Below are positions 40,801 to 43,800 of a DNA stretch of 64,000 bases, in pieces (the first letter of the stretch is position 1; every line of letters starts with the position of its first letter). The stretch comes from Syntrophales bacterium (GTDB lineage Bacteria; Desulfobacterota; Syntrophia; Syntrophales; UBA6807): the NCBI GenBank assembly GCA_040767195.1, contig JAXGPA010000003.1, forward strand, positions 128,001-192,000, in the 5' to 3' direction. A program made the position numbers.

Positions 40801-43800
40801 ATAGCCCCCGGTGATTTCGAGGAATACGCGCTTTTTGTAATCAGCGACGATACCGGCGCTGACGCGCTTCTCGTAGTAAAACAGCCGGTCGTCCTCTTCC
40901 CTGCGATCGGCCCTGAAATAGGCGTCGTTCCGCCAGTCAAAACCCATTTTTACCGTGACATGATCGGCCGCCTTCACTCCCAGGGAAGCGCTCACCGTCC
41001 GAACGGGATAATAGAGGAAGGAGAGGGTTACCCGATCGAGGGGGCGCCAGGAGAGGTACGCCATGGGAATGCCCGCCACGGCCAGAAACCGTTCATTGGG
41101 GGAATACCAGTAGAGGAGCCCCGGCAGGGGGATGTTGTTCAGGAACTCGCGGTTGCTCGAATAGAAGACGGAAGCGACCCATCCGTTTCTTTCTCCCCGG
41201 GGAAACCGGATAAAAGCGATTCCGTTGACCACCGATTCGGCTTCTCCTCGAAAGGGCCTGTCGCTGGCGGAGCCCACGGACAGGAGCCCCCCGGCGATCC
41301 GTCCGCCGCTGAGACGCTGCCGGTAAACGCCTCCCAGGTTCAGGTCCCAGAGTGTCCCGGGAAATTCGTCCTTCGTGTCGGGAAAGCGGACATCCGTGTC
41401 GACCTGCACGACACCGGCGTCAGCGACGGCGACGATCTGTCTTTTTTCGTCCTGGAAGCAGGGCGCCGCCACGGAAAGGACCTGCCGGGTTTCCTGAAAT
41501 TTCTCGTTCGTTTGTTTGGTTTCCACTTCCTTCGAATAGTGACCGTGGTACCGAATCTGGAATTCCTGTTTCTCCATGTCGGGACCGATCCACTGAAGGA
41601 GGCCCGATGACTGGGCGAACAGGACACCGGGGAAGAAGATCAAAAAAAAGGCGGAAATGACAGGACCTGTCACAAAAGATTTCATGATGCCTCTCCTTTT
41701 TAACGGCGAGCGGAAAGAATCGTCAACGTTCCTCCGCCGGCCGGATCAATAGGCCGCTCGTGGAAATCCACAGGACCAGTTCTTCTTCAACGCCGGCGGG
41801 CACAAAGGTTGCCGACCCGTACCGGGCGTCGACAAACCATTTCAGAAAAGAGCAGCGGCGGCGCAGATCGAAAAGGTCGATACCCTGCCTTTCCGAAAGG
41901 GCGTAAACCGTCCGTGGTTTTCGTCTTTCCTCTTCCAGGCTGCGGTAACGCCCCGAAACCCTGTCAAGCTCGTAGAGCGTGTGGAGACCGAGAAGATTTC
42001 CCACGGGGGTCCACTTGAGAACATGGGCGTCCACGTAAAGCTCATCGCCTAAAAGTTCGAATGTTTTGACGGCACCGTCTGGAAACTCGAACAAAACGGT
42101 AAAACGCTCTTCCCCGGCGGGATGAACGGACATCCGGGCGACCGCTTCTTCCCGGGTGAACGCCTCATACCCCCGAATCCCAAGGGCCGTCATGGCAAAG
42201 AACCCGGTCATGGCGAGAAGCAGAAGGCATTGAGCCGTCTTTCCGGCGCCCTTGAGCCATTTTCTTTCTTTCACGGTCACGGCCAGCGTGATCAGGGAGA
42301 GAAGGAAAAAAACGGCGAAAAGGATAAAGAGAACGAGGAGAAGGTGCATGATTCTCACTCCATGCAGCAATTCTTGTATTTCTTTCCGCTCCCGCAAGGA
42401 CAGGGGTCGTTTCGCCCCACCGGAACGCCGGCCTCTTTTTCCCTGCGGCGGTTAAAAAATGTATACGCACCGAGGGAAAGAAAAATGGCCACCAGGGAAA
42501 GGAACTGTTTCCCGCCGTTGTTCAGGACGTGTCCCCAGAACTGGATGAGACCCGCTGACAGTGTCTCGAGAGGAATCCCGTTTTCCACCTTCCACAGGAT
42601 GTGAAGGGGAATGTCGAGAAGTTCGGCGGCGAGAATGAAGGGGAGCGACAGGATGACAAGGGTTCCCTTTTTTTTCCAGGGCACCGTCGGCCAGGCGAGA
42701 AGGGCGGAAAGGACGAGGATAGGGTGAATGGCGACGTTGCTTGCGGGAAGGCGCCCCTCTTTCACGATCCCTTCCTGCCGTTTCCCCGCTTCATCCCTCC
42801 AGACGAAAGGAATGGCTATTTTGTAAGCGATCCTGGCCGGCTCCCCATAGGAAAGGGCGATGTCGTAGTGCGGCCTTATGATACGCATTTCCGTTTCCAT
42901 GACGGGAATAAACCCTCGGGAAATCAAAGGGCCCGCGAGGAAGAATAGAAAAAGAAAAAGCGGGAAAAAAACGAGAAGCCGGCCCAGGAAGCGGCTGAAA
43001 GAAAAGCGAGAGATGTCAGTGGCCTTTTTCATGGGTTCCCGAAAAAGCGCTGATCCAGAAAAGGAAAAAGAGAAGGCCGATGACGATGATAAACGTCTGG
43101 CCTACGAAGATGTGCATGAAATCGAAAAGGCCCGGGCGGTATTTCAGGACATAGTAGAGGGAGATGATCCGGAGGATGTTGGCCCCGTAAATGACGAGGA
43201 ATCCCGCCAGGATCCCCAGGATTTTTTCCCGCAGGCCCATGGCGAAGGCGAGTATGGCCGAGGCGATAAGGAGAATCCCCTCAATCCCCTCGCATCCCTG
43301 GGCGACATTGAGCCGGAACGTCCCCGAAACGATGACGTTCCCGTCAAGGCTTGTTTTTTCCCAGGGCGTTACGGCGTTGATGATTTTTGAACTGACGCCG
43401 GCGTTCAGGAAATTGACGAGGAAGGGCGCCGTATAGGATCGGGTGGCGTAGTGAATCCCCTGCCCCAGGAAAAAAAACAGCACGAAAAGGAGGAGGAAAC
43501 GGAGTTCCCGCCGGTAACTTTTCAAGAAGACCTTCACGTTCATGAACCCTCGTCCCCACCTTGTCCGGAAAACCCTGTTTCAGGGCCTTCAACGTACCAG
43601 ATACATGAACCATTTTCAAGGTTTCCTGCAGGTTGCCAATGGCCTCACATCAAATGTAGCCAAAGGGAGAAGATTTTCAAGGGTTGGCTTAACCGACCGC
43701 TGAAAAAATTTTCGCCCGCTTTTTCAATTTACCTTATCATGATGATACAAGGATAAGGCCTTTTTCGATGGAAAAATCAATCCTGTAAATGGCAGAGGAA

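Follow-up and report, generated by a model that had tools for sequence, protein, structure and literature searches.

A short exosortase from a clade beside XrtM and its membrane partner as a predicted IPTL-CTERM processing pair in a Syntrophales bacterium

The locus described here lies in a 64,000-nucleotide stretch of DNA from a Syntrophales bacterium (the window, that is, the whole stretch analysed) and raises the question of which enzyme acts on the IPTL-CTERM proteins encoded in its genome, and to which of the named exosortases that enzyme is related. A preliminary description had put forward the product of g01480, with its neighbor g01479, as the IPTL-CTERM sorting enzyme. The open reading frame of g01480 is as described there (Table 1), and its product can be assigned to the exosortase/archaeosortase family by score and by conserved residues: the family signature TIGR04178 scores 56 bits (NCBIfam cut-off 23) and PF09721 scores 45.6 bits (cut-off 25.7). 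All three residues of the Cys/Arg/His triad named for this family in the accessible part of 10.1101/2023.06.07.544157 are found in g01480, and C84, R125, and H144 show no variation across 36 aligned homologues; cleavage of a C-terminal signal is the predicted activity. The single TIGR04178 match in a genome that is 98.83% complete bears out the statement that g01480 is the sole exosortase, as do the rescored models the near misses reported for it, with XrtM (TIGR04300) the best-scoring model at 100.7 bits, 24 bits short of its cut-off of 125, and XrtH (TIGR04177) at 77.2 bits, also below its cut-off (86).

Table 1. Features of the g01480 locus, in window positions.
Feature	Position	Strand	Remark
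Third gene behind the partner	41723..42349	minus	208 aa from its ATG; passenger
g01479, membrane partner	42355..43032	minus	225 aa; overlaps the stop of g01480 by 17 nt
SEC-C motif, g01479 C-terminus (residues 207-224)	42361..42414	minus	PF02810, 41.4 bits
g01480, short exosortase	43016..43543	minus	175 aa; clade without a name beside XrtM
g01480 His144, predicted catalytic	43112-43114	minus	alignment of homologues
g01480 Arg125, predicted catalytic	43169-43171	minus	alignment of homologues
g01480 Cys84, predicted catalytic	43292-43294	minus	alignment of homologues
Two weak sigma-70-like matches, putative promoters upstream of g01480	43612..43680	minus	9/12 each

In terms of surroundings, the region holds four sigma-70-like matches against a shuffle mean of 1.1, and the flanking open reading frames encode PilT, RmuC, a PPDK-domain protein, and proteins without assignment. 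The third gene was rejected as a part of the system: of the 114 related loci searched with tblastn, L019, from the same genus, is the only one to have it. RNA reads from four runs of one study, for which only contigs were used, give patchy cover of g01480, g01479, and the flanks alike.

The five IPTL-tailed secreted proteins named as cargo were confirmed at their places on two contigs other than that of the window, C1 and C8 (g00045, C1:57118-59553; g00758, C1:823113-823781; g01644, C8:36389-37138; g01709, C8:107782-108693; g01715, C8:114346-115959). Their tails consist of the motif, a membrane helix, and basic C-terminal residues, and pass the cut-off of PF18203 in five of five cases and that of TIGR04174 in four. 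One is a beta-propeller protein, one a C-type lectin, and one a DUF11/Ig-like repeat protein; two are without assignment.

Co-occurrence of enzyme and signal was followed in three samples, in which kin share genes and which consist mostly of Desulfobacterota genomes. Among 339 Syntrophales genomes, TIGR04174 matches in 12, two of these matches being stop-interrupted 53-aa frames, and a g01480 orthologue is found in 8, all of which carry the signal. With the two interrupted frames dropped, 8 genomes have both, none has the enzyme only, 2 have the signal only (80 and 86% complete), and 329 have neither. These numbers depart a little from those given earlier, to the advantage of the proposed pairing: the orthologue count is unchanged, both are present in 8 genomes, not 6, and the enzyme alone in 0, not 2. 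Across GTDB, 22 of 26 genomes with an enzyme of the g01480 clade exceed the TIGR04174 cut-off and the signal is clear in 21; the match in G361 is doubtful (20.5 bits), the tail in G353 was found by tail alignment instead, and no IPTL tail was found in G342, G344, or G364. The clade enzyme is the sole exosortase match in 11 genomes, 8 of which have the signal, with up to 14 matches (G360), and XrtH over its cut-off was found in none of 30 genomes. In a second phylum (that of G359) the enzyme occurs in 6 of 101 genomes and the signal over cut-off in 5, all within those 6. The observation that ten further genomes of this phylum have other short exosortases without IPTL cargo is weakened by locus L204, where a neighboring IPTFGEWG tail escaped TIGR04174. 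An IPTL gene adjoins the clade enzyme in nine loci from eight genomes; in G350 and G363, tandem enzymes beside IPTL genes are other candidates within clade genomes. Together, co-occurrence in the three samples and adjacency make it well supported that g01480 and g01479 process the IPTL-CTERM proteins of their own genome and clade.

The same evidence bears on the possibility that the IPTL tails are uncut anchors or are cut by a rhomboid, with g01480 acting on another substrate and the co-occurrence due to shared inheritance. For it speak the two generic matches to rhomboids that the genome contains, the finding of no cargo gene near g01480 in its own genome, and two genomes with an IPTL match, of which G668 (100% complete) has only two long exosortases and G738 (95% complete) has no exosortase that was found, so that the signal can exist without a short enzyme being found. 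The rhomboid-like matches reach only 28 and 17 bits, however, against a rhombosortase cut-off of 84; a genome scan for a C-terminal helix plus basic tail returned 19 open reading frames without an evident second shared motif; and the nine adjacent loci and the co-occurrence in two phyla also speak against it. We consider this explanation highly improbable. As alternative systems, neither PEP-CTERM nor rhombosortase has a match over cut-off; the lack of a PEP-CTERM match, already reported for this genome, is a weak negative, as control genomes gave none either.

The idea that an orphan signal here meets its enzyme was rejected. IPTL-CTERM had been called so far unassigned, but the database source names an "exosortase H (IPTLxxWG-CTERM-specific)", and the NCBIfam model "midcut-by-XrtH" (NF033207) matches the same IPTL tails. 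Nor does g01480 qualify as the one enzyme for this signal: in a 400-genome phylum sample, 19 other genomes are positive for IPTL and just 2 of them have the clade enzyme, while in the remainder the enzymes are XrtH-like, tandem, or fused, or no enzyme was found. A literature search returned no paper for exosortase with IPTL or exosortase with XrtH; the full curators' comments on TIGR04177, TIGR04300, and NF041730, which lay outside it, may state some of this already. The matches listed for XrtM were all unrelated, and among those listed for the partner and heterodimer theme none was on topic by title.

The exosortase H system comprises XrtH (TIGR04177), an XrtH-associated membrane protein (NF041730, PF28117), and IPTL-CTERM proteins (TIGR04174, PF18203; NF033207). 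The present system resembles it in its short four-helix enzyme with Cys/Arg/His, its overlapping downstream membrane partner, and its several IPTLxxWG-helix-basic cargo proteins per enzyme. One alternative is that g01480 is a divergent exosortase H under cut-off and the locus an ordinary XrtH, XrtH-associated protein, and IPTL-CTERM system. Clade members do reach up to 84.5 bits on TIGR04177, the gene layout is the same, and an AU test does not reject a grouping of the clade with XrtH (p=0.075). True XrtH proteins, in contrast, score 189–204 bits on TIGR04177 and no more than about 53 on XrtM; in each of the 23 clade members scanned, the XrtM score (72–113 bits) exceeds the XrtH score (55–85 bits). 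Methylomonas XrtM members score 205 and 231 bits on TIGR04300. In both trees the clade branches with XrtM, in the first with an SH-aLRT of 98 and in the second with support of 96/90. An RHS/YD-repeat gene, present at annotated xrtM loci, is absent beside g01480. By these comparisons the clade is more probably a branch beside XrtM than a part of classical XrtH, which would mean that several lineages of short exosortases, among them XrtM, act on IPTL-type tails.

The partner gene bears on the same choice. g01479 is present and conserved directly behind the enzyme in all 25 loci with DNA there, as had been noted, but the 177-aa call (42355-42888) starts at an internal Met49 and loses the membrane helix nearest the N-terminus; translated from the nearest ATG, the partner is likewise 208–250 aa long at 23 of 24 related loci. 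Its earlier designation as a SEC-C motif protein holds for the C-terminus only: the strict motif occurs in 17 of 24 partners and is missing from several clade partners and from both Methylomonas XrtM partners, which marks it as an optional tail on a membrane-protein core. A partner match was also found in 70 of 80 metagenome loci retrieved with an XrtM query and in three of three plasmids. g01479 is homologous to the downstream partner of XrtM (78 bits), and by profile the partner resembles XrtM partners (P 99.8%) far more closely than it does NF041730-like proteins (P 91%). NF041730 (cut-off 35 bits) has no match on g01479 and reaches 24.1 and 20.7 bits on at least 2 of 62 partner homologues; PF28117 XrtH_assoc is found in 11–25% of the members of the nearest Atlas clusters, both points favoring a divergent XrtH system. 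Sequence comparison thus identifies g01479 as a homologue of the gene behind xrtM and as distant kin of XrtH_assoc. On balance we judge a divergent exosortase H unlikely, and take the system to be a variant of known exosortase/IPTL sorting with an enzyme from another branch than exosortase H.

The partner itself looks like a degenerate exosortase paralogue without the catalytic residues, as judged from profiles and models. Against a short-exosortase profile it gives P 79% and E 1.5e-5 in hhalign (reversed controls, E ~0.5), and pooled partners give P 88.5% and E 2.7e-6. The similarity is weak against single-group profiles (P 0.9% for enzymes of its own clade alone, 7–8% for XrtH or XrtM alone), between XrtH-like partners and enzymes (P 0.8%), and for the exosortase HMM on single partners (7.5 bits or less). 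Single-chain forms that fuse an enzyme to a second domain occur in L099, L103, L111, L112, and L083; these second domains match the exosortase profile (P 87%, E 3.8e-6); against the partner they score only P 1.2%, a further weak point. No support was found for a counterpart of the partner in the N-terminal half of long enzymes of the XrtA type (P 0.4%). Models of enzyme and partner (pLDDT 94 and 84), compared by order, have the same succession of a helix, three strands, and three helices. No solved structural relative was found for the pair by sequence, Foldseek gave no match for either model at E 0.001, and the best VIA-align match, TatC (Z 6.1, rmsd 6.2), is within background.

The predicted g01480–g01479 complex scores 0.73 and the best control 0.01; among 157 solved complexes 116 come up to the mark, and among 215 mismatched pairs 2 do. 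The runs share at least 90% of contacts, with a partner pLDDT of at least 84, and in the model partner residues 171–177 pack on the helix that follows Cys84 of the enzyme. This packing, the gene overlap, and the fused forms point to a stoichiometric subunit, and thus speak against a g01480 that cuts alone, as a monomer or homodimer, with the partner doing a separate job such as Sec docking via SEC-C, acceptor hand-over, or onward movement of cargo. The frequency of the SEC-C tail and the weakness of the partner–enzyme homology are consistent with such a division of labor, and the partners that lack SEC-C argue against it; we find it unlikely.

Our preferred reading, that a g01480/g01479 heterodimer cuts the IPTL tails of the five secreted proteins and then releases or transfers them, is probable in the light of sequence, models, and analogy. 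In this mechanism g01480 would be a membrane cysteine protease/transpeptidase, its fold and its dimer with g01479 both being predicted. After Sec export, the IPTLxxWG-helix-basic tail would hold the cargo in the inner membrane. By inference from archaeosortase A (ArtA) and family knowledge, the dimer would recognize the motif, Cys84 would attack at or near it, and the helix would be removed; the cut cargo would be released or passed to an acceptor, probably a lipid, en route to the cell surface. In the sources consulted, experimental support for cleavage in the family comes from ArtA of Haloferax volcanii, for which cleavage and lipid attachment of PGF-CTERM proteins are shown in the accessible text of PMC9263693. 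The Cys–Arg spacing of 41 in g01480 equals that of ArtA Cys173/Arg214 given there, and the tails of both are tripartite. Unlike g01480, ArtA consists of one longer chain (271-position model), has another critical arginine, Arg253, and uses an archaeal lipid acceptor; no separate partner protein is described in that portion of the source.

Another comparison is with the XrtM (TIGR04300) cassettes of Methylococcales, with their RHS genes: XrtM is the best-scoring model and the sister in the trees, and its cassettes have a homologous partner of about 200 aa. To our knowledge, XrtM has no assigned sorting signal. A divergent IPTL-like tail is seen in 11 of the 22 loci with 8 kb upstream, and none was seen in the other 11. 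Only 2 of 13 tail proteins scanned exceed the TIGR04174 cut-off, and an HMM of canonical IPTL tails is poor at finding them. In the scoring of the 22 loci, L088 reached 29.4 when properly left out; the score of its near twin L087 was not truly a left-out one. The system described here differs in that g01480 has no RHS gene and its proposed cargo, with canonical IPTL tails, is encoded at scattered places in the genome, not in a cassette. We give an even chance to a broader proposal with two parts held jointly: that short exosortases (XrtH, XrtM, and the g01480 clade) are half-enzymes that form pseudo-symmetric heterodimers with a catalytically empty paralogue, the "associated membrane protein", adjacent or fused; and that the XrtM branch, with this clade in it, forms a second lineage of enzymes acting on IPTL-type tails, whose XrtM/RHS cassettes have their own overlooked cargo of the xQVP(A/T)(L/V/M)PxW type, often encoded by the first cassette gene.

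If true, this proposal accounts for the short enzymes and provides XrtM with a substrate, and a set of three genes in a culturable Methylomonas would allow tests of exosortase activity in bacteria; the minimal bacterial set of a 175-aa enzyme, a partner, and a short tail would itself be a handy test system. Were the partner a required inactive subunit, expressing a short exosortase on its own would not work, and a function could be given to the "associated membrane protein" families. With IPTL-like cargo for the XrtM branch, a gap in annotation would be filled and IPTL-type sorting would reach methanotroph RHS cassettes. That Methylomirabilis lanthanidiphila has an IPTL-CTERM protein as its S-layer protein, according to the accessible part of PMC8671808, suggests that the IPTL route matters for the cell surfaces of anaerobes.

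The exosortase gene g01480 has the position and length given in the preliminary description, and its product is the sole match to the exosortase family model TIGR04178 in this genome (98.83% complete), as had also been proposed. The protein scores above the family cut-offs (TIGR04178, 56 versus 23 bits; PF09721, 45.6 versus 25.7 bits) and below those of the subfamilies XrtM (TIGR04300, 100.7 versus 125 bits) and XrtH (TIGR04177, 77.2 versus 86 bits). Cys84, Arg125 and His144 show no variation across 36 aligned homologues; an excerpt of 10.1101/2023.06.07.544157 names Cys, Arg and His as the exosortase triad. 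Among 23 scanned members of the clade formed by g01480 and its orthologues, scores are 72–113 bits on the XrtM model and 55–85 bits on the XrtH model, with XrtM higher in every one; true XrtH proteins reach 189–204 bits on the latter. Both trees are unrooted: in a quick tree of 89 rows a branch separates the clade and XrtM from the remaining rows (SH-aLRT 98), and a careful tree of 49 rows, with the longest rows left out, supports the clade plus XrtM at 96/90 and the clade alone at 98/96. An AU test did not reject a grouping of the clade with XrtH (p = 0.075). The better reading of these sequence comparisons, though not a settled one, is that the clade is XrtM-like rather than XrtH. Neither this exosortase branch nor its partner family has a model of its own.

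Genes of the exosortase locus and its flanks (positions within the window)
Feature	Position	Strand	Basis
331-aa secreted-looking protein, ends in Phe	40690-41685	-	ORF
g01479, 225-aa partner, N-terminal membrane helix	42355-43032	-	corrected ORF start
g01480, 175-aa exosortase	43016-43543	-	ORF, family models
869-aa protein, PPDK_N in C-terminal half, N-terminal part without assignment	44080-46689	+	ORF, domain scan

The gene of the PPDK_N protein is transcribed away from g01480 and is not kept beside the enzyme in related loci. The 331-aa protein, which has no Pfam or NCBIfam match, is possibly an outer-membrane barrel.

In terms of cargo, five secreted proteins encoded on two other contigs (C1 and C8) have a C-terminus made up of an IPTL-type motif, a hydrophobic helix and basic residues. 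All five, as previously listed, exceed the cut-off of the IPTL-CTERM model PF18203, and four exceed that of TIGR04174; these tails are also hit by the NCBIfam model “midcut-by-XrtH”, with scores below the cut-off of that model. The genome has no rhombosortase above cut-off. The claimed absence of PEP-CTERM agrees with the lack of a match in this genome, a weak result as control genomes gave none either. The description of g01480 as the so far unassigned IPTL-CTERM enzyme does not hold: JGI labels many proteins “exosortase H (IPTLxxWG-CTERM-specific)”, a pairing that reportedly goes back to Haft, Payne and Selengut in 2012. IPTL-CTERM is not an orphan signal, and an exosortase with IPTL cargo is a kind of system already known. 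Since the signal is already paired with exosortase H, the question becomes whether IPTL tails are substrates of g01480, and to which type of enzyme g01480 belongs.

Across all 339 Syntrophales genomes, TIGR04174 matched in 12, two of which (G138 and G158) were dropped because their matches are 53-aa frames containing a stop. A clade profile found an orthologue (E 1e-74 or better) in eight genomes, all eight of which carry the signal; two genomes (80 and 86% complete) have the signal only, and two further ones lack the signal and have distant exosortases. Scanning GTDB genomes yielded 26 clade loci, seven of them overlapping with the order-wide matches, in Syntrophales, Desulfobacterales, other Desulfobacterota, Latescibacterota and one Verrucomicrobiota record. 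TIGR04174 is above cut-off in 22 of these 26 genomes; alignment of the tails additionally identified one in G353, left G361 unconfirmed and showed none in G342, G344 and G364. XrtH is above cut-off in none of 30 genomes (the 26 and four more; best score 84.5). The clade enzyme is the sole exosortase match in 11 of the 26; eight of these carry the signal, among them G360 with 14 signal matches. Among 101 genomes sampled from the phylum to which G359 belongs, six have the clade enzyme and five have TIGR04174 above cut-off, all five among the six; three of these were absent from the earlier samples. An IPTL gene adjoins the enzyme at nine loci in eight genomes (L026, L029, L033, L039, L072, L080, L199, L200 and L203). 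Fisher tests of co-occurrence (p = 1e-14 and 8e-8) overstate independence because kin share genes, and adjacency together with the second phylum is stronger evidence for the pairing than these tests.

At seven Desulfobacterales loci (L024, L025, L028, L032, L034, L036 and L040) the enzyme-partner pair holds a constant position downstream of a 510-aa gene that carries an IPVLGICYG motif, which we take to be GMP synthase, i.e. a housekeeping context. Exosortase fragments lie directly behind IPTL genes at L080/L113 (G357:C191) and L215 (G353:C48), which suggests that cargo-enzyme units have been duplicated or have decayed locally.

TIGR04174 matched in 24 of 400 other genomes from the phylum of the window, 19 of which were counted as solid (18 at ≥25 bits and G476, confirmed in its locus), with five weak ones set aside. 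Two of the 19 have the clade enzyme, six a single-domain XrtH-like enzyme (84–93 bits, best copy per genome), eight a tandem enzyme of ~410–580 aa and one a fused form; none of these types was found in the remaining two, G668 and G738. Several lineages therefore serve IPTL tails, the g01480 clade being one. G668 (100% complete) and G738 (95%) have IPTL-CTERM matches of 30 and 42 bits, and only long exosortases or none were found there. The tandem enzymes (L073, L074, L075, L100, L102, L104–L108 and L115) have two Cys-bearing domains, adjoin IPTL genes in G350 and G363, and are the sole short-type enzyme in eight IPTL-positive genomes. A separate XrtH-like group (L091–L097, L101 and L114; 78–93 bits) has its own downstream partner family, of which the six complete members end in an IRFEP-like motif and the two scanned against Pfam gave no match; at L093 and L095 an IPTL gene lies directly upstream of the enzyme.

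To our knowledge, curators list no sorting signal for XrtM. On two annotated Methylomonas plasmids, xrtM (231 and 205 bits) lies behind RHS genes and is followed by an overlapping gene that matches the g01479 family (78 bits; profile comparison P 99.8%). The first gene of both cassettes encodes 151 aa whose C-terminus consists of VPAVPE(W/L)G followed by a helix and then RQTKK; on TIGR04174 the two proteins reach 20.5 bits (the cut-off) and 14.8 bits. In 80 metagenome loci collected with an XrtM alignment, the partner matched in 70, with misses mostly at contig ends, and many have an upstream gene ending in xQVP(A/T)(L/V/M)PxW, a helix and basic residues. With related training tails left out, an XrtM-type tail of ≥12 bits is present in 11 of the 22 true XrtM loci with ≥8 kb upstream (7 of 15 clusters at 90% identity); no unrelated sequence scored above 11.0 among the 24,568 six-frame ORFs taken from the genome of the window. 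When nine XrtM-locus tails alone were used to build an HMM, four of the genome's five IPTL proteins took ranks 1, 2, 4 and 5, and the fifth fell outside the top nine. Counting against similar cargo, just 2 of 13 XrtM-locus tail proteins reach the TIGR04174 cut-off, the tail is missing from the other 11 of the 22 long loci, and close kin are frequent among the loci. XrtM has the same partner as the g01480 clade and often similar cargo.

At two loci the XrtM-type tail is internal and resembles the “midcut” arrangement: in a 1447-aa RHS ORF (L139:1-4344, plus strand) it is followed by ~450 further residues, and in a small ORF immediately preceding xrtM (L185:9204-9623, plus strand) by ~55–60. At L194–L196, an XrtM-like enzyme (105.7 bits in L195) is encoded directly downstream of a gene with a VPLPGW-type tail, and VPEP-tailed genes belong to that cluster too. 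L157 holds two enzyme-partner pairs in 7 kb; one is a true XrtM and the other an intermediate, with a partner that scores 170 bits on the g01479 profile.

The partner g01479 was correctly described as a conserved neighbor, lying directly behind the enzyme in all 25 clade loci whose sequence extends that far; its earlier length of 177 aa came from a call starting at Met49. The corrected gene overlaps the enzyme's stop by 17 nt, and the ATG nearest that stop gives a partner of 208–250 aa in 23 of 24 related loci. SEC-C, by which the neighbor had been named, is present in 17 of 24 partners (strict motif) and is therefore an optional tail. The family conserves W114, P115, D140 and G173-G174-R/K175-Q176, with no conserved Cys outside SEC-C. 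The XrtH-associated model PF28117 occurs in 11–25% of members of its nearest Atlas clusters, and NF041730 matches 2 of 62 homologues below cut-off.

A possible reading, to which we give about even odds, is that short exosortases are half-enzymes, each pairing with a catalytically empty paralogue. The partner profile matches pooled short exosortases over 119 columns (P 79%, E 1.5e-5; reversed controls E ~0.5), and pooled partners match them over 158 columns (P 88.5%, E 2.7e-6) with D140 aligned to the enzyme Arg, a hydrophobic residue aligned to His and a gap at Cys. Against single subfamilies the match is weak (P 0.9–8%), and an exosortase HMM gives 60 partners a slight excess over 50 unrelated hydrophobic ORFs (median 0.0 versus -2.5, maximum 7.5 versus 2.8). 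AlphaFold models predict a common order of long helix, three strands and three helices in enzyme and partner (pLDDT 94 and 84). Five relatives (L099, L103, L111, L112 and L083) are single chains of an active and a second domain; compared with the exosortase profile, the second domains give P 87% and E 3.8e-6, but they do not match the partner profile directly (P 1.2%). A literature search, which covered neither the 2012 paper of Haft, Payne and Selengut nor curators' comments, found no XrtM substrate and no partner described as a paralogue.

Modeling predicts a dimer of g01480 and g01479 with a score of 0.73 (best control 0.01), a mark that 116 of 157 solved complexes and 2 of 215 mismatched pairs attain; at least 90% of contacts recur between runs, with partner pLDDT ≥84. 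The predicted interface uses equivalent helices from both chains and includes enzyme G83, 87–92 and H144 and partner 171–177. Sequence search found no solved relative, so the model is unlikely to be a memory of a known complex.

The genes, residues, co-occurrence, adjacency and relationships are observed, the folds and the dimer predicted; beyond these, a mechanism may be proposed. The cargo would be exported through its signal peptide and then held by its tail, the dimer would bind the IPTLxxWG motif, and Cys84 would cut at or near it. By analogy with ArtA, the product may be released or joined to an acceptor; PMC9263693 describes Cys173, Arg214 and Arg253 as critical and cleavage as followed by lipid attachment, and g01480 shares with ArtA a Cys-Arg distance of 41 residues. 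Excerpts of PMC3531188 and 10.64898/2025.12.21.693542 hold nothing specific for the mechanism. Because the S-layer protein of Methylomirabilis lanthanidiphila bears IPTL-CTERM, according to an excerpt of PMC8671808, an outer-surface destination of the cargo would by analogy be plausible.
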